From: Dialister sp.
Lineage (GTDB): Bacteria; Bacillota; Negativicutes; Veillonellales; Dialisteraceae
Reading direction: 5' to 3'
NCBI RefSeq assembly: GCF_047832375.1
Contig: NZ_CP181256.1
Location: 2,235,750 to 2,299,749 of the forward strand
Length of the DNA stretch: 64,000 nucleotides
The notes under the pieces were generated by a model, which searched no databases, was not told the origin of the DNA, and was given only the letters and a program-made list of their open reading frames with translations. Shown here piece after piece: positions 42,829 through 52,916 of this stretch (the stretch's first letter is position 1; the number at the start of each line of letters is the position of its first letter). The position numbers and the translations under genes are program-made.

Positions 42829-42867
42829 ATGAAGCGCCTTTTCTCAACGTCTATCAGTGGCGATCGA

Positions 42868-43521
42868 GTAGGAGGCGGGCATCGGCCCGCCGACCTCTCA
42901 CACCACCGTACGTACCGTTCGGTATACGGCGGTTCCTTAGTTTTCGCATTCCTGCTTATGCAAGTCTGCGATGATGTTGTTGTTTTCAGCAATCCTCACA
43001 TGGATGGGCACTCCGGCATATCCTTGCTGTTCCGCAGCTACTTTCTGCCAGTAGTCTTCTTTCTGAAGTTGTCTGCCTTTAAGCCCATGGTTGGTTACTT
43101 TCATTGACTAACATCTCCTAAAGTTCGGCCCTTCCCAGATGCCCATGAGCCATCTGGTACTATGGCCTCTGCTGACTTCTCACGGCAAATCTTATTTCAA
43201 CCACAGCACAGCCCAGTAAATACAGCCTTATTCTGCTGTGTCCGTGAGACCTCCCCAGGTAAGAACGTATTCTTTCTCTCCATCTATCCGCCACATCTAC
43301 TCTACAGGATTCCGTACAGCTATGGGACTTCAGTTTGTTTGGCAACCTTATCCACCCTGTATTAGCCTTATGTGGTTCTTGTACATCGGACCGGAGATTT
43401 GCCTGCACCTTCCTTCAGATTCCACCTCACGATGGACACCCTTGGTGTTCAGCTATGACCTTCCCGCTGTCGGGTAGTCTTGGGACTTTCACCCTTGAGA
43501 ATACGCCCATGCTGGGCGCAC
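42868..43521 (-). mobile_element. class C (IIC) group II intron, ORF-less / IEP-deleted derivative
   Basis: The minus strand starts GTGCGCCCAGCATGGGCG...GGGTGAAAGTCCC...GGAATCTGAAGGAAGG...TTCTTACCTGGGGAGGTCTC...GAAGTCAGCAGAGGCCATAGTACC. Domain V is CCGCCGTATACCGAACGGTACGTACGGTGG (42933-42904), followed by a domain VI hairpin. Domain IV holds only a 55-codon ORF (43107-42943). The 3' end is approximate. Confidence 0.85.
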
Positions 43522-43522
43522 C

Positions 43523-43566
43523 AAAAAAACTCCCGTTCCGAAACCATCGGAATGGGAGTTTTTTAT
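43523..43566 (-). terminator. intrinsic terminator of mdcA; also the apparent homing site of the IIC intron
   Basis: On the minus strand: AAAAAACTCCCATTCCGA-tggtt-TCGGAACGGGAGTTTTTTT, then G, then the intron 5' GTGCG. Confidence 0.85.
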
Positions 43567-43584: not shown

Positions 43585-45258
43585 TTACCAGTTTCTGAAT
43601 TTAGCCGGCGGATCATAGAGGCCGCCGGACCAGTCTACGAGGTCCTTCATATTCTTGGCAGCCAGGAGGTCCCTTGTGGCTGCTGCGGGGTTGATGCCCA
43701 GGTCTTCCGGAAGCTTCACGATGCCTTCCTTCCGGAGTCTCTTTGTGACTTCCGGATCTTCCTGTTTGCCCACATCCGTCTTACCTGCAACGGCACGGAT
43801 AGCATCCATTCTTTCTTCCATGTTGTGGCACTTATGGAGGTAGGCGATACCCACTTCAGATACGATATGGGTGAGGTCATCGGAGTAAATCATAATCGGT
43901 TCCAGGTCCAGGTTGGCGTTCTTCTTCAGGGCCACTGCATCCAGCTGGTCCACGAAGCCCGGGAAGCCTTTGGCAGAAACGGTGGTAATCATCTGGACCA
44001 CCAGCTTCTTGCCGCGGTTCCGGTCGCCCATGAGTTCATAGCGGTTGGCTACTTCTTCGCCGCACTTCTTCCATGCTTCCGTTACATGGCGGCGGCCCTT
44101 GGCATCGCAGCCCATGTTCGGAGCACCGCCGAATCCGGCCACATTGTTCTTTGTGGCGGTAGAGGAGTTGCCGAACCGGTCGATCTGCATGGTGGAGCCG
44201 ATGAACATGTCTGCCGCATAATGGCCGGCAGCCTGGCAGAAGGCACGGTTGGAACGCATGGTGCCATCAGGTCCGATAGCAAAGATATCCGGACGGGCTT
44301 TGATGTATTCTTCCATGCCCACTTCGGAGCCGAAGGAATAGACCGCCTGTACCCAGCCTGTTTCAATGGCAGGAATCAGGGTAGGATGGGGATTCAGTAC
44401 CCAGTGGGTGCAGATCTTGCCCTTGAGACCCAGGGATTCACCGAAGGTCGGAAGAAGCAGTTCTACCGCTGCCGTATCATAGCCTACGCCATGGTTCAGG
44501 ACTTTAACGCCATATTCTGCATAAATGCCTTTGATGGCCATCATGGCCTTCATGATGCGGTCGTCCGTAATCTTGGCAGGGTCACGGGTGAAGAGGGGAT
44601 TCAGGAGGTACGGAGTCGGTGCTTCAATGACGAAGTCCACCCAGTCCGCCGGGATATCCACTCTCGGTACCTTGTCTACAATCTTGTTGACCTGGAAAAT
44701 GACGATGCCCTGGTTGAATTTCGTAGCTTCTACGATGGCCGGTGTATCTTCCGTGGAGAAACCGGTGTAAATGTTGCCATCCTTATCGGCTGCATCAGCG
44801 CAGACCAGGGAAACTCTCGGTACCAGGTCGATGAAGTAGCGGGAATACATTTCCAGGTACGTATGGATAGCACCCAGTTCGATGCCCCCATTCTGTACCA
44901 TCTGGGCCAGCCGCTTGCCCTGGCTTCCGGCATAGGCGAAGTCCAGTTTCCGGGCAATCCCTTTATCAAAGACATCCAGGTGTTCCGGAATGGAAAGGGT
45001 GGACTGAATCATATGGAGATCATGGACTTTGGAAGGATCAACCTTGCACAGTTCCTTTGCCAGGAAATCAGCCTGTTTCTGGTTATCCCCTTCAATGTTT
45101 ACTTTATCACCGGGACGAAGAACTGCTTCCAGCAGTTTTACCGTATTATCGGCATCTACGATCTTTCCATCTGCATACACCCGGGCAGCAGCCAGTCTGG
45201 CAGCGGTATCGTCGCCTCTGGTATGCCAGTTCTTATTGGACGGTTTGATTTCTAACAT
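43585..45258 (-). CDS. mdcA: malonate decarboxylase alpha subunit homologue (acetyl-S-ACP:malonate ACP transferase / CoA-transferase fold)
   Basis: 557 aa. IEGDNQKQADFL, GIARKLDFAYAG, LFTRDP, HPTLIPAIETGW, GFGGAPNMG and C-terminal LVDWSGGLYDPPAKFRNW match my recollection of MdcA along the whole length. Confidence 0.85.
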   Translation of the reverse strand: MLEIKPSNKNWHTRGDDTAARLAAARVYADGKIVDADNTVKLLEAVLRPGDKVNIEGDNQKQADFLAKELCKVDPSKVHDLHMIQSTLSIPEHLDVFDKGIARKLDFAYAGSQGKRLAQMVQNGGIELGAIHTYLEMYSRYFIDLVPRVSLVCADAADKDGNIYTGFSTEDTPAIVEATKFNQGIVIFQVNKIVDKVPRVDIPADWVDFVIEAPTPYLLNPLFTRDPAKITDDRIMKAMMAIKGIYAEYGVKVLNHGVGYDTAAVELLLPTFGESLGLKGKICTHWVLNPHPTLIPAIETGWVQAVYSFGSEVGMEEYIKARPDIFAIGPDGTMRSNRAFCQAAGHYAADMFIGSTMQIDRFGNSSTATKNNVAGFGGAPNMGCDAKGRRHVTEAWKKCGEEVANRYELMGDRNRGKKLVVQMITTVSAKGFPGFVDQLDAVALKKNANLDLEPIMIYSDDLTHIVSEVGIAYLHKCHNMEERMDAIRAVAGKTDVGKQEDPEVTKRLRKEGIVKLPEDLGINPAAATRDLLAAKNMKDLVDWSGGLYDPPAKFRNW

Positions 45259-45490
45259 AGCATGAAGTCCTTTCTTTTATAACAAGAGAAATGAAAGTGT
45301 CAGCAGCTCAGGCTGCTTTGTATACAGGTCTCATATTTTTATTATAGCCCCTTCTGAAATTGGTTTTCAGGTCCGGGGTACCCACCGCGGGCACCCCGTC
45401 CCCGAAAAGGAAGGGAATCATTCCGGCTCGGCTCCCTGTGAGAGGCGGGAATGTAAATTCCCAGGACCGCCTCCCCGGAATGGGAAGTCC

Positions 45491-46255
45491 TCAGAAAAAC
45501 AGGGTAGTGAGGAAGTAGAACACCGATGGGAAGAGCAGGCATCCCAGACCGGTATAGAAGGTAGCCGTCATGGCTGCGTAGGGCACAAGCCTCGGGTTCA
45601 CGGCTGCCATACCGGCTGCAGTGCCGGAGGTGGTTCCCATGATGCCGCCGAAAGCCATGGCAGACTGGGGGTTATCAATGGACAGCGGTTTTGCCACGAA
45701 AGGCGTTACCACCATGACCAGTACCGATTTCACAACGCCGGCAGCGATAGAAATCGCAATGACTTCAGAGGAAGCGCCCAGGGCGGCCCCGGTAACCGGT
45801 CCTACCACGAAGGTGGCCACGCCGGCGCCGATGGTGACAAGGTCCACGGCACTGGTGTATCCCAGGGGATAAGCCACTGCAATGCCTGCTACGAGGCAGA
45901 CAAATTCACCGAAGAACAGGGAAGCCACGCCGCGCCATCCGATTTTCTTGATTTCCCGAAGGTCTGCACCGAAGGCAGTGGAGACGATGGCGAAATCCCG
46001 GAACATGGCGCCGCCCACAAGACCCATACCTGCAAAGAGAGGTATGTCGGCAATCCCTTTATGTCCACCGGTAGTGACACCGCCGATATAGGCCAGGACC
46101 AGGCCCAGGAAAATGGCAATGGCGCTGCCATGGATGCGGCCCTTGGTAAGGCCCGCCAGTTTATAGGAAATATACATGACAATGCCCAGCAGTGCAAAGG
46201 CAAAAACCATGCCGTTTTTTACGAAAAGTTTTGTAATGATTGCTGCAAGATCCAT
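45491..46255 (-). CDS. madM: malonate transporter subunit MadM
   Basis: 254 aa. GRIHGSAIAIFLGLVLAYIGG, GGAMFRDFAIVSTAFG and RLVPYAAMTATFYTGLGCLL resemble the MadM family. Adjacent to madL and mdcA. Confidence 0.75.
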   Translation of the reverse strand: MDLAAIITKLFVKNGMVFAFALLGIVMYISYKLAGLTKGRIHGSAIAIFLGLVLAYIGGVTTGGHKGIADIPLFAGMGLVGGAMFRDFAIVSTAFGADLREIKKIGWRGVASLFFGEFVCLVAGIAVAYPLGYTSAVDLVTIGAGVATFVVGPVTGAALGASSEVIAISIAAGVVKSVLVMVVTPFVAKPLSIDNPQSAMAFGGIMGTTSGTAAGMAAVNPRLVPYAAMTATFYTGLGCLLFPSVFYFLTTLFF

Positions 46256-46270
46256 GATTTTCTGCCTCCT

Positions 46271-46666
46271 TTACTTCTGGTCTTTAACCACTTCATCATC
46301 CCTGGCCCAGGCTTCCCCATGGCCCTTGGAGAAGAATGGAATGGCCAGATAGCCGATGACTACAGCCAGTACAGCGCCTCCGAGAGCGACGATGCCGCCG
46401 GAAAGAGCAGCTGCCACGTTCTGGATGGAACTCATGGCTACAACGATGGGAATGTACATGGCACTCCAGAATTTGATGCCCTGTTCTTCCGGGGCTTTCA
46501 TATATCCCTTCTGGATGGCCCAGGTGGAAGCCAGGATCAGGAACAGCATGGCGAAACCTACGCCGCCGATGTTTGCATTAATTCCCAAAAGGGCCCCCAG
46601 TACATCGCCCACGAAGTTTCCGGCCAGATAGCAGCAGGCAAGCAGTGCAACACCATAAACAACCAT
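46271..46666 (-). CDS. madL: malonate transporter subunit MadL
   Basis: 131-aa 4-TM protein from MVVYGVALLACCYLAGNFVGDVLG behind a GGAAGGG RBS (track start 46747). Sits 15 nt upstream of madM. Confidence 0.7.
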   Translation of the reverse strand: MVVYGVALLACCYLAGNFVGDVLGALLGINANIGGVGFAMLFLILASTWAIQKGYMKAPEEQGIKFWSAMYIPIVVAMSSIQNVAAALSGGIVALGGAVLAVVIGYLAIPFFSKGHGEAWARDDEVVKDQK

Positions 46667-47034
46667 AATAACACCCTTCCTTTCCTTCGAAAAACGGCTC
46701 CTTCTTTCCCTGATTGCCCTCCGGGAAAGGTCTTGTCCGCTTTTCAAAAATTTGGACCTGACAGGCTTCCTATTTGTTATAATAAAATCAAATAGGCCTT
46801 ATCAAAAATCCTTTTGTTTTCTTCGGCTTTAGTATACCCGCTTTTCTTTAAAGATTAAAATAAAATTAGCCAAGATGCGGAAAACAGGGGGTAAGATGCG
46901 ATAGAAATGCATGAATTCCCCAATTCATAATTTTAGGCGGAAATTCATAGAAATTATTGATAATTTCTATGATATATCATAATTTATATATTATGTATTG
47001 TGACTGATCGGATTTTTCTGTAATTTCAGAAAGG

Positions 47035-48795
47035 ATGATTTCTATGAATGCCTCCTGGGTCGTAGGTGTCCAGCATGTCTGGTTCGGCATTTCCATCTTC
47101 CTGCTGCTGCTCCTCCTCATCTGCCGGACCACATTTTTCAGGGAAGCCATTTCCGCCAAGCACTTCAGCCGGAAGCACACCATCCTCTTTATCATCCTCT
47201 TCTCCATCATGTCCATCTGCGGCACCTACTGGAACGTCAGTGCCGGCGGCGGCATCATCAATTTCCGGGCCGTCGGCATCATTCTGGGGGGCTTCGTGGG
47301 CGGCCCCATCGTAGGGACCGTGACCGGCCTCATCACCGGCTTCCACCGGGCCTTCTTCATCCACACCGATGCCGCCTTTATTCACGGAGGCCTTTCTATT
47401 CTCCAGGGCATTGCGGCCGGATTTCTTTCCAAGCGGCTGAAGAGCCACCACCAGCAGCTCTGGCTTTGGGCTTTCATCGATGCCCTGGTATTGGAGCTCC
47501 TGTTCTGGATGTTTTTCGCCTTTCTCACATTCCCCCAGTCCCTGGAACACCCCTATGGCTTTTTCAGTCTCTCCCTGCCGATTATTGTAACCAATACCAT
47601 TGCAGTAAGCCTGTTCTACATGGTCATTGAATTCTTCATTCACCAGCGGGATTCTGAAAAGACACAGACCACCCGGACCACCTTCGACGCGGTGGCCGGC
47701 CTCTTTGCCACCCTCCATGACGGATTCAACAACACGAACATTTCCAGCATTGCGGAGCTCGTGACTTCCTCCCTGCCCAACCTCACATGGACTGCTATTT
47801 CCTACAAGGACCAGCTCTATATCCATACCAATTACCAAAATGAGGCAGATAAAAACCAGGGGGACGCGGAAATTGCCATACTGAAACTGCAGAAAAAGCT
47901 GCCCGACATGCCCCACCTCATGACCCTGCCTGTGACATACCGCCATGAACCGGTGGGCTACATCATCGCCGCCAAGAGCAAAGGGGATACATTCACGAAG
48001 ATGGGCATCGAATTTCTCCACGGCATCTGCCATGTCATGGAAGCCATCTATGAATACGACAAAATGAAGGAAGAGGAAAACCTGCTGGCGGAAGCGGAAA
48101 TCCGGGCTCTCCAGGCCCAGATCAACCCCCATTTTCTCTATAATACCCTGAATACCATCAGCTACTATGTGCGGAGCGACCCCGATACGGCCAGGAAGCT
48201 CATCCAGTACCTGTCCGACTATTTCCGGCACAGCCTGAATAACCCCTCCAAACTGATTCCCCTGTCCGAGGAACTACACGTCATTGAAAGTTATACGGAA
48301 CTGGAGCGGGCCCGTTTTGGGGACCGCCTGAAAATCACCTACGATTTTCCGAAGGATAAGCTGGACACCATCCAGGTACCGCCGCTGCTGCTGCAGCCTC
48401 TTGTGGAAAATGCGGTAATTCACGGCATCTTCAAGCGGCCGGAAGGCGGGAAAATCAAAGTAGGCCTCATTGAGCATCCCAAATATTATAAAATCTACGT
48501 CCTCGATACAGGGGTCGGCATGTCGCCCAGAAAGAGGAAAAAGCTCCTCATCGACCACAAGCGGCGAGACCAGATCGGCCTTATCAATGTGCACCAGCGG
48601 CTTCTCTCCCTCTTTGGGAAATCCTGCGGTCTCCATATCGTAAGCAAAGAAAACAAAGGCACCCTGGTTTTCGCCAATATTCCCAAGATTGAGGTGCCAA
48701 AGAAACGGGCAGCAGATAAAAGGGAGGAGCCCCTCCAGAAGCCCATCGTCCTCCATCCCTTAGTAAAGGAAGAGTCCGGTACTGCTAACGGATAG
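47035..48795 (+). CDS. LytS/YehU-type sensor histidine kinase (5TM-Lyt, GAF, His_kinase, HATPase_c)
   Basis: 586 aa. N-terminal multi-TM region with GGFVGGPIVGTVTGLITG. AEIRALQAQINPHFLYNTLNTI H-box. LLLQPLVENAVIHG and VLDTGVGM ATPase motifs. Confidence 0.9.
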   Translation: MISMNASWVVGVQHVWFGISIFLLLLLLICRTTFFREAISAKHFSRKHTILFIILFSIMSICGTYWNVSAGGGIINFRAVGIILGGFVGGPIVGTVTGLITGFHRAFFIHTDAAFIHGGLSILQGIAAGFLSKRLKSHHQQLWLWAFIDALVLELLFWMFFAFLTFPQSLEHPYGFFSLSLPIIVTNTIAVSLFYMVIEFFIHQRDSEKTQTTRTTFDAVAGLFATLHDGFNNTNISSIAELVTSSLPNLTWTAISYKDQLYIHTNYQNEADKNQGDAEIAILKLQKKLPDMPHLMTLPVTYRHEPVGYIIAAKSKGDTFTKMGIEFLHGICHVMEAIYEYDKMKEEENLLAEAEIRALQAQINPHFLYNTLNTISYYVRSDPDTARKLIQYLSDYFRHSLNNPSKLIPLSEELHVIESYTELERARFGDRLKITYDFPKDKLDTIQVPPLLLQPLVENAVIHGIFKRPEGGKIKVGLIEHPKYYKIYVLDTGVGMSPRKRKKLLIDHKRRDQIGLINVHQRLLSLFGKSCGLHIVSKENKGTLVFANIPKIEVPKKRAADKREEPLQKPIVLHPLVKEESGTANG

Positions 48796-48882: not shown

Positions 48883-49635
48883 ATGGAAGAAATCAATGCA
48901 CTGGTAGCGGATGATGAACTCCCGGCCCGGGGAGAACTGAAGTATGAACTGGCCTCCATTCCCGGCGTCAGAATCGCAGGGGAATGTGCCAATGGAAAAG
49001 AGGTCCTGGCATTCCTCAAAGTTCACCCCAATGTGGACATCCTTTTCCTCGACATCGAAATGCCCATGATGAACGGACTGGAATGCGCCGAGAAAATCCT
49101 GGCCATGGACCTGCCCCTGAAAATCGTGTTTGCCACAGGATACAGCCAGTTTGCCCTTCAGGCCTTCGAACTGGAAGCTTTCGACTACATCCTGAAACCC
49201 TATTCGGAGCAGCGGATCCGCCGTATCATAGAGCGTCTGGAAGACAGCCTCACTCTCCGCCGCCAGCATATGGTGCCGGGAGAAGTAACCGCCAACTCCC
49301 AGAAAATCGCTATCCAGACAAGGGATAAGACTCTCATGATTTCTCCGGCCCAGGAAATCGTACTCATTTCTACAGAAAAATCAGACCGTTCCCTCTTCTA
49401 TACCACCAATGGCATCGTGGAATCCCGGATGACCCTCCGGGACATCGAAAGCCTCCTCACGCCTCTGGGATTTTTCCGTACCCATAAGGGATTTATCGTA
49501 AATCTCTCCATGATTCATGAAATCGAGCCCCAGGACAACGGTACCCTCCTTCTCACCATGACCCGCTACGAAAAGCAGAAGATTCCGGTGTCCCGGCACT
49601 ATATCAAGGCGTTTAAAGACATACTGCACATATAG
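48883..49635 (+). CDS. LytR/AlgR family response regulator (REC + LytTR DNA-binding domain)
   Basis: 250 aa. DDELPAR...ILFLDIEMP receiver; C-terminal LytTR segment FFRTHKGFIVNLSMIHEIEP. Confidence 0.9.
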   Translation: MEEINALVADDELPARGELKYELASIPGVRIAGECANGKEVLAFLKVHPNVDILFLDIEMPMMNGLECAEKILAMDLPLKIVFATGYSQFALQAFELEAFDYILKPYSEQRIRRIIERLEDSLTLRRQHMVPGEVTANSQKIAIQTRDKTLMISPAQEIVLISTEKSDRSLFYTTNGIVESRMTLRDIESLLTPLGFFRTHKGFIVNLSMIHEIEPQDNGTLLLTMTRYEKQKIPVSRHYIKAFKDILHI

Positions 49636-49899
49636 CCAATTGCGGTTTGACGAGCTGTTGGAGGGTTGGCGGTTGGCATGCTTGCGGATAGAGTCACTCG
49701 CATGGAGCTCTTAGCTTCTAGCGGCTAGCTGTTAGAAAGGCTGATCCGCCTGCGGCGCTTCCACCCGGTATTTTCGTCGGTCATTCGTGCCGTAGGCTGG
49801 CCAGCTTTCCTGAAAGCTAGCAGCTAACAGCTAGAAGCTCCGCACGAATGACTCTATCCATCAGCGTCGCCCCAACAGCTCGACAAACTGAAATATTCC
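49635..49899. repeat. Family A repeat copy A17 (full, centre reversed)
   Basis: GCCAATTGCGGTTTGACGAGCTG begins at the last base of the response regulator stop codon (49635); right end CAGCTCGACAAACTGAAATATTCC. Confidence 0.9.
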
Positions 49900-49904
49900 C
49901 ACGC

Positions 49905-49948
49905 AAAAGGACCGGGAAAATGAATTCTCATTTTCCCGGTCCCCTTTA
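49905..49948 (-). terminator. intrinsic terminator after the YkvI-like gene
   Basis: AAAGGACCGGGAAAATGA-attc-TCATTTTCCCGGTCCCCTTT, abutting the stop at 49954. Confidence 0.85.
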
Positions 49949-49953
49949 TATGC

Positions 49954-51132
49954 TCAGGCGCGGACCGCTTCGGTCTGCTCCTCTTCTTCCGTTGTATTCA
50001 CAGATTCTTCCTTTTTGAAGATCTTGTACACACCCACCGTCAGGAGAGGCAGGAGGAAGAGTGCCATAAAAGCATAGGCCAGTGCCATGTAACCCTTGGC
50101 GATGAGATCGATGATTCCCACCTGGGCCAGGGCGATGGACGCAGCCATGATGACCACCGTGGTCAGTCCCTTGTTCCTGCGGGACAGGGCAGGCCGTCCT
50201 TTTTCAGCAAGTCCCTTGTCTACCCGAGCCAGGAGGGCATGAATCATACCGGTAGCCGTTTCGATAAGGGTCCATCCCATGATGAAGCTGAAAGCCACCA
50301 TGAGCCAGGAAGGAGCGCCGCTTTCCTGCATCATCACCATCCAGGGCACCTGGGCACCCAGCACTTCTTTAGACGGATAAAATCCCATGACAGAGAAATA
50401 GGTGAGGAACCAGGGAATGGTTGCCAGAAGGCCGGCCACGATGCCGCTTACCACAGATTCTTTCCGTTTCGTCTGTTTCTTCACAGTAAAGAAAGATGCC
50501 GGGAATACGACGAGATTGCAGGCCATGTAGAGAAGGCCGGTCCACAGGGCGTGTCCCATGGTGGCATCCGGTACATAGGAATGGTCAGAAGAAGCCATGA
50601 CTGCGGCAATGTTTCCGGTATGTCCGGAAATGACGAGGACCGAGAATGTAAGGTAACCCACATAGAGGGCCACGGTGCCGAAGGTCTCAAAGAAGGAAAT
50701 CACCTTTTCCCCGTAGAAATTGAGGAGCCCTGCCACCACCATGATACCTACCACGCCAAACCAGTGGGAAACGCCGAACATCTGCTGCACCACAGCACCG
50801 GTGGCGGAAGACATGACCGCCAGGATGATGACCATGAATACCGCATAAACCAGGTCGAAGACCCGGTAAAGGGGGCCTGCAATGGCTTCAATAAAAGACT
50901 TGTAATCGTATACATGGTACAGGCGGATCAGCTCATAGCAGAGAACCGCCACCAATGCAAATCCCAGCATAATGCCCAGACCCGCATACCAGCCATAGGC
51001 GCCGAATTTCGCACCGTACTCCACGATTTCCCGGCCCGTGGCATAACCACCGCCAATCATGACGGACTGCAGCACAATACCTGGAAGAAGATATTTCCCC
51101 AGGTTCCCATCAAACATCGAAGATACTTTCAT
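49954..51132 (-). CDS. YkvI-family membrane transporter-like protein
   Basis: 392 aa, ~11-12 TM. QSVMIGGGYATGREIVEYGAKFG resembles the YkvI N-terminal motif. Preceded by a T-box leader. Confidence 0.65.
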   Translation of the reverse strand: MKVSSMFDGNLGKYLLPGIVLQSVMIGGGYATGREIVEYGAKFGAYGWYAGLGIMLGFALVAVLCYELIRLYHVYDYKSFIEAIAGPLYRVFDLVYAVFMVIILAVMSSATGAVVQQMFGVSHWFGVVGIMVVAGLLNFYGEKVISFFETFGTVALYVGYLTFSVLVISGHTGNIAAVMASSDHSYVPDATMGHALWTGLLYMACNLVVFPASFFTVKKQTKRKESVVSGIVAGLLATIPWFLTYFSVMGFYPSKEVLGAQVPWMVMMQESGAPSWLMVAFSFIMGWTLIETATGMIHALLARVDKGLAEKGRPALSRRNKGLTTVVIMAASIALAQVGIIDLIAKGYMALAYAFMALFLLPLLTVGVYKIFKKEESVNTTEEEEQTEAVRA

Positions 51133-51480
51133 AATAACCCTCCTTCAATATTCGGCAGGGCAATCAAAAAGCCCCTGCCACAATAGACAGAGGCGGATGT
51201 TCCGCGGTACCACTCTGATTTATCACTCAGACACAAAGCATAAAGACGATGGAAAAAGAAAAACCCCTGTCCGAATGATCGGACAGGGGCGAAATCGCGG
51301 TACCACCCTGCATTATACTCATATGTCATAGTCCTGTAACGGGCACTCCCGCTTTCCTTACTGCTGCTTCAGGAAAGATGCTCCCAAGTGATTGTCCATG
51401 ACCCGTGTGTACCGGCTTTCACCATACGCCGGCTCTCTGGGACATCGTCAGCCATGTCCATCTTGCTCATCGCTCTTTAT
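51133..51480 (-). promoter_or_regulatory. T-box leader with a second, downstream T-box-like box
   Basis: On the minus strand: AGAGAG...GGTGAAAGCCGG stem I elements. GCAGGGTGGTACCGCG (51311-51296) with terminator CCCCTGTCCGA-tcat-TCGGACAGGGGTTTTT. About 95 nt later a second AGAGTGGTACCGCGG (51217-51203) precedes hairpin GGCAGGGGC...GCCCTGCC just upstream of the RBS. Confidence 0.75.
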
Positions 51481-51519: not shown

Positions 51520-51573
51520 ACTGATTTTCGGTGCCGAGGAACAGAGTCACCGGCATGGGGCTGCCAGCTCCTA
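51520..51573. repeat. Family A repeat copy A18, left fragment (interrupted by IS630 copy 2)
   Basis: ...GGAACAGAGTCACCGGCATGGGGCTGCCAGCTCCTA, then the IS end. The outer terminus is degenerate. Confidence 0.7.
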
Positions 51574-52748
51574 GTGTCTAATTTCATAAATAATAGATTG
51601 TATTGCCGGACACAGCAAATAATGGTATACTTATTCCAGATAAATGCAAATTGCAGGGGGGGATAACGTTATGCCAAAAGTTGCTAAGCAAATACGCTGC
51701 TCCGAAAGCAAACGCATAGAACTGCATAAAATCGTAAACTCTCAAAAAACAGAGCATCGCATTGTAAGACGTGCAAAAATGGTTCTTCTATGTCTTGATG
51801 GAATGCAAATCAAGGATATCGCGGCTAAGTTGGGGGAACGCCCCAATACCGTTAGTCTTTGGCGGAATCGTTTCGCTGAACAGGGCATCCCTGGGCTACA
51901 GGATAAGAAAAGGCGGGGCCGTACTGCTCAATATGGACCGGAATTCCGCGAAATGGTGTTAAATAAGCTGAAGGAAGCGCCTCCAGACGGGTTAGCACAC
52001 TGGGATGGTCCTACACTGGCAAGAGTTCTGAATGTCTCAAAGGCTGCCATTTGGCGACTTATGAGAAAGGAAGGAATACAGCTGGCAAGGCAGCGTTCCT
52101 GGTGTGTCAGTACTGATCCGGAGTTTACTAAAAAGTCTGCTGATATCGTGGGGCTTTACTTGGACCCGCCAGAGAATGCTGTCGTAATCAGCGTTGATGA
52201 GAAACCATCGATACAGGCCTTAAGTAGAGCCCAAGGATATGTACTTACTCATAACAAGAAAATTGTGCGCGGGTTGAAAAGCACATACCGGAGGAATGGA
52301 ACAATAAATTTATTCGGTGCACTGGAGGTAGCTACCGGACAAATTTATGGAAAGGCAACAAAGAGAAAAACCAGAGAGGACTTTGAAGAATTTTTAAATG
52401 ACTTATTGAAAAGTGAGCCGGGTGGAGACAAAGTGCAATATCATGTTATTGTCGATAATTACTGCACGCACAAGCGCTTAAACGACTGGCTGGAAAAGCA
52501 TCCTAATGTCCATTTTCATTACACACCAACGTCAGCGAGCTGGCTGAATGAAGTGGAAATATGGTTTAACATTATGTCGCGAAAAGTGCTCCGAGGGGCA
52601 AGTTTTGACTCTGTTTCGGATCTCGTGTCAGCGATTAAAAAGTTTATTGCTGCCTACAATGAGCATGCAGAACCGTTCCGCTGGAAAAAACGTGAGGTCA
52701 AGGGTTCGCAACTTAGGGATACAATCGGAAACTTACGAAATTAGACAC
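51574..52748 (+). mobile_element. IS630-family insertion sequence, copy 2 (1175 bp)
   Basis: Same GTGTCTAATTTC / GAAATTAGACAC ends as copy 1. Flanked as C-TA-[IS]-TA-G inside the first CTAG heptad of repeat A18. Confidence 0.9.
51671..52744 (+). CDS. IS630 family DDE transposase (copy 2)
   Basis: Differs from the copy 1 protein at 5 positions in the track translations (E/K, N/D, T/A, D/N, I/V). Confidence 0.9.
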   Translation: MPKVAKQIRCSESKRIELHKIVNSQKTEHRIVRRAKMVLLCLDGMQIKDIAAKLGERPNTVSLWRNRFAEQGIPGLQDKKRRGRTAQYGPEFREMVLNKLKEAPPDGLAHWDGPTLARVLNVSKAAIWRLMRKEGIQLARQRSWCVSTDPEFTKKSADIVGLYLDPPENAVVISVDEKPSIQALSRAQGYVLTHNKKIVRGLKSTYRRNGTINLFGALEVATGQIYGKATKRKTREDFEEFLNDLLKSEPGGDKVQYHVIVDNYCTHKRLNDWLEKHPNVHFHYTPTSASWLNEVEIWFNIMSRKVLRGASFDSVSDLVSAIKKFIAAYNEHAEPFRWKKREVKGSQLRDTIGNLRN

Positions 52749-52916
52749 TAGCTGTTAGCTGTTAGCTTTCAGGAAAGCTGGCCAACCTACGGCATGAATT
52801 CTATTCTGGAACATGGGACGGAAAGCGCCGCAGGCGGATCAGTTTTCCTGGCAGCTAGAAGCTAAAAGCCAGCAGCCCCGTGCTAATGACTCTATCCATA
52901 AACACCCCAGACCGCC
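52749..52916. repeat. Family A repeat copy A18, right fragment
   Basis: TAGCTGTTAGCTGTTAGCTTTCAGGAAAGCTGG..., a diverged centre ...GCGCCGCAGGCGG..., right heptads, then TAATGACTCTATCCATAAAC. Confidence 0.8.

Follow-up and report, generated by a model that had tools for sequence, protein, structure and literature searches.

The Malonomonas rubra-type mad cluster (madA, B, C, D, E, F, G, H, L and M) encodes a biotin-dependent malonate decarboxylase along with the two-component malonate carrier MadLM, while mdcABCDEGH of Klebsiella, Pseudomonas and Acinetobacter represents the biotin-independent type (structure 5vit). In rhizobia, matABC gets by without an acyl carrier protein (ACP) and combines a carrier (MatC) with activation of malonate to malonyl-coenzyme A (malonyl-CoA) by a malonyl-CoA synthetase (MatB) and with a malonyl-CoA decarboxylase. 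A further route was reportedly described by Dehning and Schink in 1994 for Sporomusa malonica, which like Dialister is a member of the Negativicutes. Its malonate fermentation is said to depend on malonyl-CoA, with CoA transfer from acetyl-CoA and subsequent decarboxylation, and to our knowledge no genes were assigned in that work. The locus analyzed here lies in a stretch of 64,000 nucleotides from Dialister sp. (contig NZ_CP181256.1, positions 2,235,750 to 2,299,749), which is referred to in its full length as the window. It comprises madL, madM and a homologue of mdcA, the gene for the malonate decarboxylase alpha subunit, and is accompanied by genes of a two-component regulatory system. 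Judged from its residues and its gene neighborhood, this orphan MdcA is most likely an ACP-independent malonate:acetyl-CoA CoA-transferase (EC 2.8.3.3). The module has the following parts:

46271-46666, minus strand: madL, small subunit of the two-component MadLM malonate carrier (131 amino acids; TIGR00807, PF03817)
45491-46255, minus strand: madM, large subunit of the MadLM malonate carrier (254 amino acids; TIGR00808, PF03818)
45259-45490, minus strand: spacer of 232 nucleotides between madM and mdcA, strongly structured RNA with one promoter-like site
43585-45258, minus strand: mdcA homologue, predicted ACP-independent malonate:acetyl-CoA CoA-transferase (557 amino acids; TIGR01110, PF16957)
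43524-43564: bidirectional intrinsic terminator hairpin closing the module (AAAAAACTCCCGTTCCGA...TCGGAATGGGAGTTTTTT, 18 pairs counted)

The two adjoining carrier genes both scored above the NCBIfam equivalog cut-offs (MadL 138 bits, cut-off 113 for TIGR00807; MadM 340 bits, cut-off 236 for TIGR00808) and matched their Pfam families with E-values of 2e-46 (PF03817) and 2e-113 (PF03818), respectively. A ribosome-binding site (GGAAGGG) is located 8 nucleotides 5′ of the madL ATG, and madM starts 15 nucleotides past the end of madL. The MdcA homologue reached 913 bits (cut-off 789 for TIGR01110), matched PF16957 from end to end (1-546 of 546) and was aligned to the MdcA structures 5vit/6mpr with an E-value of 1e-214. 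The terminator hairpin follows 20 nucleotides past the mdcA stop codon and is bordered by an A-run before and a T-run after it. An earlier note on this DNA had described the three genes as a minus-strand unit that ends in a strong terminator, with an intron downstream and a two-component system upstream. This layout was confirmed by the open reading frames (ORFs), the equivalog scores and the 18-pair hairpin, and the flanks indeed contain a group II intron RNA and a divergently oriented LytS/LytTR gene pair, which are described below.

The spacer between madM and mdcA has a minimum free energy of -89.7 kcal/mol (z = -4.1 compared to shuffled sequences) and forms a long GC-rich hairpin. The promoter scan detected a site resembling a promoter within it (CTGAAA-18-TATAAT, 45370-45341). 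In other Dialister the corresponding gap measures 95-420 nucleotides and is unrelated in sequence. A conserved RNA element was considered for the spacer and rejected, since conservation is confined to the species and Rfam gave no match; a processing or stability element, an internal promoter or a small inserted element are candidate roles. Because of this structured stretch of 232 nucleotides, transcription of madL-madM-mdcA as a single unit is no more than plausible. The only RNA runs with sequences of the module came from wastewater libraries and yielded short contigs over parts of mdcA, the spacer, madM and madL. The kinase gene was not covered by them, and in one run the end of the regulator gene was touched by contigs at 49428-50000.

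To determine which subunits of a malonate decarboxylase accompany the module, reference proteins were taken from two full Mad-type clusters (L013, L015) and one Mdc-type cluster (Sphingomonas, L092). A tblastn search of the window (E <= 1e-4) with MadB, MadC, MadD, MadE (the ACP), MadF, MadH, MdcD, MdcE, MdcG, MdcH, CitG/MdcB and biotin ligase (BPL) revealed nothing besides madL, madM and mdcA. When the six-frame translation was scanned under --max with a hidden Markov model (HMM) built from 113 MadE/MdcC ACPs, the lowest E-value in the window was 1.5, i.e. no ACP, while three control clusters gave 1e-16 to 1e-58; in the orphan loci the model found no match either. Pfam scans of the remaining ORFs of the window did not detect an acyl-CoA decarboxylase. 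These ORFs encode, among others, arginine biosynthesis enzymes, IMP dehydrogenase, parts of methionine and other ABC transporters, an SLH protein, biotin biosynthesis proteins, ThiD and several transposases. At least 20 Dialister contigs and about 15 other orphan loci were likewise negative for genes of the ACP, carboxyltransferase, prosthetic-group enzymes and MdcH within 10 kb to either side. Thus, tblastn, the ACP model and Pfam agree with the previous statement that the other decarboxylase subunits are absent from the window.

Compared to the known systems, the locus shares the MadLM carrier genes with the mad cluster, and the Mad-type MadA/MdcA proteins (L013, L015, L025/26) are the closest relatives of the Dialister enzyme, to which they are 66-69% identical with an identical malonate site. 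As in the mad system, decarboxylation probably ends on a Na+-pumping biotin enzyme. Unlike mad, the window is devoid of the MadE ACP, MadC/D, MadF, MadH and prosthetic-group enzymes, the docking residues of the enzyme are lost and its predicted carrier is free CoA. With the biotin-independent mdc systems it has the fold and the catalytic residues of the alpha subunit in common (58-62% identity across proteobacterial Mdc loci), and Sphingomonas-type mdc loci likewise carry madLM beside mdc. By contrast, linked MdcC, MdcD and MdcE are missing from the window, F424 and E466 are replaced, and Dialister is an anaerobe. The regulator types differ as well, LytS/LytTR in Dialister versus MdcR in Klebsiella (PMC5534430). 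Rhizobial matABC resembles the proposed module by its ACP-free combination of carrier, activation and decarboxylation, but activation by MatB costs ATP whereas for Dialister the prediction is a CoA transfer without net energy cost, carried out by an enzyme from an unrelated family. The module would follow the same logic as the pathway of S. malonica. A literature search did not reveal any paper on orphan MdcA, on malonate use by Dialister or on the genes of the Sporomusa pathway.

The prediction of CoA as carrier is derived from 97 aligned MdcA/MadA sequences whose gene contexts are known; the Pseudomonas numbering was rebuilt from the alignment to the PDB entry. For the Pseudomonas holoenzyme, the malonate-site residues of MdcA and the residues at the MdcA-MdcC interface have been named; both F424 and E466 belong to this interface, and F424A was the sole single substitution that abolished holoenzyme formation (PMC5534430). 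The window MdcA retains N59, Y134, R228, N292, F312, R341, Q345 and G381 of the malonate/thioester site. These eight active-site residues do not vary in any class, orphans included, i.e. in essentially all 97 sequences. At the ACP interface, on the other hand, the docking surface is not preserved: F424 and E466 are both replaced by V, and position 490 is occupied by K. Cluster-borne enzymes possess F424 in 57 of 63 and E466 in 61 of 63 cases, while none of 15 representatives of the orphan lineages has either residue. The replacements at 424/466 are V/V in the Dialister group, T/Q or V/Q in Synergistaceae, and C/I or C/V and R/K in groups of Syntrophales. Position 490 is aromatic or hydrophobic in canonical enzymes and K, N, D, G or E in orphans. 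A scan that made no use of the structure came to the same positions. Of the 233 columns with a conservation of 90% or more across the canonical enzymes, the orphans have lost exactly 466 and 424 and kept 194; the probability that two random conserved columns would be exactly these two is approximately 4e-5. The varied replacements would fit a relaxed constraint after loss of the interface. All orphan lineages also exhibit changes at A180 (K/R/H), Q237 (R/S/H/N), L472 (H/Y) and G486 (A/S) and have lost R256.

In addition, 120 database relatives were classified by their 424/466 signature, and four gene contexts were subsequently looked up. For P0048 (M/V, locus L097), the sole partner alongside is a carrier of the MatC type. 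P0068 (M/Q) is solitary amid genes for carboxylate carriers, and P0074 (M at 424, K at 490) is accompanied by madL-madM alone. P0044 (F/E, locus L096) is adjoined by an ACP gene. The signature hence agreed with the gene context in three independent cases and in a fourth on a chimeric contig. With 78% identity to the Dialister enzyme and a position among the orphans, P0044 had been considered its canonical sister. This was rejected and the protein was dropped from the phylogenetic argument, because its residues from about 10 to 370 are Dialister-like (80-93% identity in most 45-residue stretches, 73-93% over all) while residues 415-549 are 82-98% identical to the canonical MadA of L015. The contig is 3 kb long with 1.19x coverage, and both the 3′ third of its mdcA and the next gene, encoding the ACP, are of the Acidaminococcaceae type. 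It is likely that this chimera is an assembly artefact, which would mislead phylogenies. P0044 counts only as a C-terminal part bearing F424 and E466 that is physically linked to an ACP gene.

The loss of the ACP docking surface in conjunction with a complete malonate/thioester site argues for free acetyl-CoA as the predicted donor. Isolated canonical MdcA already serves in enzyme cascades that produce malonyl-CoA from malonate in vitro (PMC9138302). The suggestion of the earlier note that the enzyme might act as a free CoA-transferase thus gains from the lost docking residues, the intact site, purifying selection, neighboring carriers and CoA enzymes and the in vitro precedent, while we infer the activity itself.

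Orphan MdcAs are not restricted to Dialister, as a survey based on 80 species-representative MdcA loci revealed. In Dialister and other Veillonellaceae they occur with MadLM, with MatC or without a carrier. One Firmicute locus (L011) has the order mdcA-madL-madM-AEC carrier, and in Synergistaceae and Pyramidobacter a DctM-like protein adjoins. In Syntrophales and other Deltaproteobacteria, an SSF symporter and sometimes a family III CoA-transferase precede MdcA, which is sometimes followed by an acyl-CoA synthetase. The order on one deltaproteobacterial contig is MatC, OAD_beta, a small ORF and MdcA; an environmental contig has madL-madM-OAD_beta-biotin carrier-mdcA. Besides MadLM, carriers of four families (MatC, SSF, DctM-like and AEC/Mem_trans) were found next to orphan MdcA, with MatC-type carriers in L033, L091 and L097. 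The recurring partner is a carboxylate carrier of varying family, with CoA enzymes or the beta subunit of a Na+ pump, and never an ACP. In five loci of Syntrophales and related bacteria (L052, L055, L068, L074, L076), a conserved SSF sodium:solute symporter gene is located directly 5′ of the orphan mdcA, and L052 and L055 additionally contain genes for a family III CoA-transferase and an AMP-binding acyl-CoA synthetase. These loci look like a separate CoA-based module for small acids.

The earlier note had also proposed a phylogeny of this MdcA against the ACP-dependent forms. A bootstrapped neighbor-joining tree yielded five orphan clades, each with 100% support, one of which unites Dialister with MatC- and MadLM-linked Firmicute forms. 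The deep nodes, which join the orphan clades to each other and to the Mad and Mdc clades, were unsupported.

Within Dialister the module is widespread. The contig collection lists the identical MdcA protein in 61 blocks, and the ten places displayed come from assembled metagenomes of the gut and other sources, one of them a contig of 2.94 Mb that holds the window. This contig was not among the matches of a metagenome scan with the Dialister OAD_beta. In all ten places, the genes for a response regulator and a histidine kinase stand beside madL-madM-mdcA, and within 10 kb to either side there is no further mdc Pfam family. The closest named relatives of MdcA belong to uncultured Dialister species. 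The same module content was found in more than 20 Dialister contigs, and every Dialister locus is orphan, some of them on contigs of 1.7-2.9 Mb. Across Dialister species (dS ~1), the ratio of nonsynonymous to synonymous substitution rates (dN/dS) was 0.04-0.05 for mdcA and 0.03-0.08 for madM; for madL it was ~0.2 compared to other Dialister. At this dS, the values mean that all three genes are maintained by selection rather than being a decaying remnant. By this measure, the module is under strong purifying selection.

The genes and sites possibly involved in regulation of the module are located upstream of madL:

47035-48795, plus strand: LytS-type sensor histidine kinase gene (5TM-LytS, His_kinase and HATPase_c in Pfam), divergent from madL
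48883-49635, plus strand: LytTR-family response regulator gene (PF00072 and PF04397)
46870-46900, minus strand: predicted LytTR regulator box, direct repeat CGCATCTTACC / CGCATCTTGG, 21 nucleotides from start to start
46831-46836, minus strand: conserved -10-like hexamer TATACT, 33 nucleotides downstream of the repeat

By their Pfam domains, the proteins are a LytS-type sensor and a receiver/LytTR regulator. The kinase-regulator pair stands beside madLM-mdcA in every madLM-bearing Dialister locus, with 67-87% identity, while the outer flanks differ. It has the domain architecture of the E. coli systems BtsSR and YpdAB, whose genes likewise form a pair beside a carrier operon and whose sites we take to be direct repeats with a period of about 21 nucleotides upstream of the target, as in Dialister. 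The best NCBIfam match of the regulator was BtsR (NF008677), but with 157 bits it remained below the cut-off of 246, so that orthology to the pyruvate sensor pair BtsS/BtsR is not indicated. In the otherwise unalignable upstream regions of madL from ten Dialister loci, the direct repeat is the sole conserved block, and GGTATACT is invariant or nearly so in all ten. The repeat follows the pattern YGCATSTTACC, 10 nucleotides, YGCATCTT. A strict search retrieved this pattern a single time from the window, with 0 matches expected by chance, and from 15 of 99 loci; allowing one mismatch added further Dialister loci and none in L017. All matches in madLM-bearing Dialister loci are upstream of madL. 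L024, which is devoid of madLM, has a looser box-like match adjoining its own kinase gene. The repeat is proposed as the putative box of the regulator because its spacing matches that of LytTR sites, for which a direct repeat with a period of about 21 nucleotides is presumably typical.

Based on these data, it is rather probable that the five genes form a self-regulated module for uptake and activation of malonate, the malonyl-CoA then being decarboxylated by a Na+-pumping enzyme. The LytS/LytTR pair would sense a carboxylate, presumably malonate, and activate the madL promoter via the direct repeat. MadLM, whose family assignment is clear, would import malonate, with a coupling to Na+ suggested by analogy to M. 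rubra; a passage in PMC8085960 cites work on Na+-dependent malonate transport by MadLM of this bacterium. The MdcA homologue would use free acetyl-CoA instead of acetyl-S-ACP and convert malonate and acetyl-CoA to malonyl-CoA and acetate. Finally, a biotin-dependent, Na+-pumping (methyl)malonyl-CoA decarboxylase would turn malonyl-CoA into acetyl-CoA and thereby regenerate the CoA donor. Dialister genomes carry a succinate-to-propionate (mmd) cluster that includes methylmalonyl-CoA decarboxylase (PMC11441152). The resulting cycle would mirror the succinate cycle at the cost of three extra genes. The methylmalonyl-CoA decarboxylase of Veillonella reportedly accepts malonyl-CoA as well. In four Dialister-type contigs (L059, L100, L102, L120), an OAD_beta gene is located 0.1 to about 5 kb from the unit of regulator genes and module. 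For the transfer of malonyl-CoA to a Na+ pump, which the earlier note had already brought up, these neighbors and the publications on the genus are indirect evidence. A broader proposal is more tentative, namely that orphan MdcAs are widespread, unrecognized ACP-independent malonate:acetyl-CoA CoA-transferases which in Dialister, together with MadLM, constitute a three-gene add-on to the Na+-pumping methylmalonyl-CoA decarboxylase.

Several points weigh against this pathway. Within the window there is no decarboxylase gene, OAD_beta included. The regulator box was sought upstream of the neighboring OAD_beta in L059, L100, L102 and L120 without success, and L101 contains the OAD_beta gene without the module. 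With its 232-nucleotide spacer, the unit is only a candidate operon, and the wastewater RNA coverage is low and patchy and might include carried-over DNA. It is conceivable that a set of mad or mdc subunit genes is located at a distance, beyond the 64 kb of the window and the 10 kb on either side that were covered in relatives. Moreover, the tree does not decide between one and several origins of the orphan state.

In the Dialister-type contigs L100, L101, L120 and L102, a lone OAD_beta gene is directly preceded at its 5′ side by a gene for a FlK-like hotdog thioesterase of about 150 amino acids. The two genes are found together at:

L100, 2515-4242: thioesterase and lone OAD_beta
L101, 9376-11122: thioesterase and lone OAD_beta
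L120, 9392-11116: thioesterase and lone OAD_beta
L102, 5540-7273: thioesterase and lone OAD_beta

No carboxyltransferase gene was detected beside OAD_beta in the stretches of these four contigs that were examined. In the canonical Firmicute Mad clusters (L013, L015), genes for a 4HBT thioesterase, HutP-like genes and the MadB gene are situated upstream.

The main rival explanation accepts the CoA transfer and concerns the fate of malonyl-CoA. The same chemistry might have an anabolic aim and deliver malonyl-CoA to FabD and fatty-acid synthesis, or to pimelate and biotin synthesis. An energy-poor organism could thereby save on acetyl-CoA carboxylase, which consumes ATP and needs biotin. All arguments for a CoA transfer without ACP fit this assumption equally well, the window lacks a linked decarboxylase gene, bioA, bioD and bioY lie 9-12 kb away within the window, and the orphan mdcA of L097 is located about 6.6 kb from a gene for a BioW-type pimeloyl-CoA synthetase fusion. 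On the other hand, one would rather expect a catabolic substrate where a dedicated high-capacity carrier comes with a two-component system. In L059, L100, L102, L120, L091 and L107, MdcA is adjoined by OAD_beta with or without a biotin carrier, and unrelated genes and an insertion sequence (IS) element lie between the bio genes and the module. An anabolic use is therefore regarded as unlikely. It is also conceivable that transporter and enzyme act on another small dicarboxylate or carboxylate, since the partner carriers elsewhere are of generic families (SSF, DctM-like, SCFA_trans, CitMHS). However, the malonate contacts seen in the crystal structure (R341, N292, Q345, F312, N59, Y134, G381) are invariant, MadL and MadM both exceed their equivalog cut-offs, and MatC-type carriers, named for the rhizobial malonate carrier, recur beside orphan MdcA, which makes a different substrate very unlikely.

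The remaining explanations deny that the enzyme acts on its own or that it acts at all. In a split cluster, ACP, carboxyltransferase and prosthetic-group genes elsewhere in the genome would serve MdcA in the classical ACP cycle, and the searched regions given above leave room for such genes. Against this, every orphan lineage has exchanged the two residues of the ACP interface with the highest conservation, whereas 194 of 233 conserved columns persist, and all Dialister loci are orphan, those on the 1.7-2.9 Mb contigs included. A weaker argument, as only some of the proteins are named, comes from the database relatives of a Negativicutes MadE ACP: among the 120 of 170 that were listed, the named ones belong to Acidaminococcaceae, Veillonella, Synergistes and Cloacibacillus and none to Dialister, while relatives of MdcA by contrast do bear this name. 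The chance that the cluster is merely split appears very small. A docking in a different manner to another carrier protein with the same prosthetic group, e.g. the citrate lyase ACP CitD, would be compatible with the possible presence of citrate lyase genes elsewhere in the genome; CitD and MdcC share the prosthetic-group chemistry and one Pfam family (PF06857). Yet neither the window nor any orphan locus contains a sequence similar to PF06857, and the docking replacements differ by lineage (V/V, T/Q, C/I, R/K, M/Q), which suggests relaxed constraint and not a new common interface, so that this partnership is highly improbable. Finally, the locus resembles a fragment of a Mad-type cluster and has IS630, IS110 and a group II intron nearby, as might be expected of a decaying, non-functional remnant of a former mad cluster. 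But the ORFs are intact in more than 30 contigs of several species, and dN/dS amounts to 0.03-0.05 with dS at saturation. The catalytic residues do not vary, and conservation extends to the regulatory repeat upstream. It is hardly conceivable that such a locus is a remnant.

Apart from the module and its regulatory genes, the following features were recorded in the window:

42863-43521, minus strand: group II intron RNA of 659 bp without ORF (Rfam D1-D4 and D5/6 models; 147, 54 and 44 bits)
51282-51479, minus strand: T-box leader (107 bits, cut-off 93)
49954-51132, minus strand: gene for a multi-pass membrane protein of 392 amino acids without Pfam or NCBIfam match, T-box leader directly upstream
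5157-6337 and 51571-52751: IS630-type element with a DDE_3 transposase of 366 amino acids, present in two copies of 99% identity
3741-4928 and 57624-58985: two IS110-family transposase genes

The group II intron is inserted 3 nucleotides past the mdcA terminator hairpin and is absent from strain L002, which is otherwise 99.4-99.8% identical. Its position just behind a terminator stem-loop recalls what we take to be the habit of class C bacterial introns. The IS630-type copy at 51571-52751 is missing at that place in sister strains. The membrane protein led by the T-box may be an amino-acid-regulated carrier of an undescribed family.

As far as sequence data can tell, this member of the MdcA family has given up the interface to its carrier protein and moves together with a carrier and a two-component regulator of its own, probably as a pared-down route of malonate use not described so far. 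The database name "malonate decarboxylase subunit alpha" would mislead metabolic reconstructions, in which either a decarboxylase would be falsely called or the gene dismissed as a fragment. The two-residue signature (424 and 466, Pseudomonas numbering) separates subunits of the holoenzyme from stand-alone enzymes, and the latter may outdo the former as biotechnological suppliers of malonyl-CoA. If the proposed activity is true, there would be a natural ATP-free route to malonyl-CoA beyond the in vitro side reaction, and the activity EC 2.8.3.3 would obtain a natural genetic basis. This could explain the malonyl-CoA-dependent pathway of S. malonica, and the malonyl-CoA-dependent malonate fermentation of Negativicutes would become genetically testable. 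Dialister, a prevalent succinate consumer of the human gut, would gain a second substrate for decarboxylation, and an energy-conserving malonate fermentation would exist in succinate-decarboxylating gut Negativicutes such as this genus.

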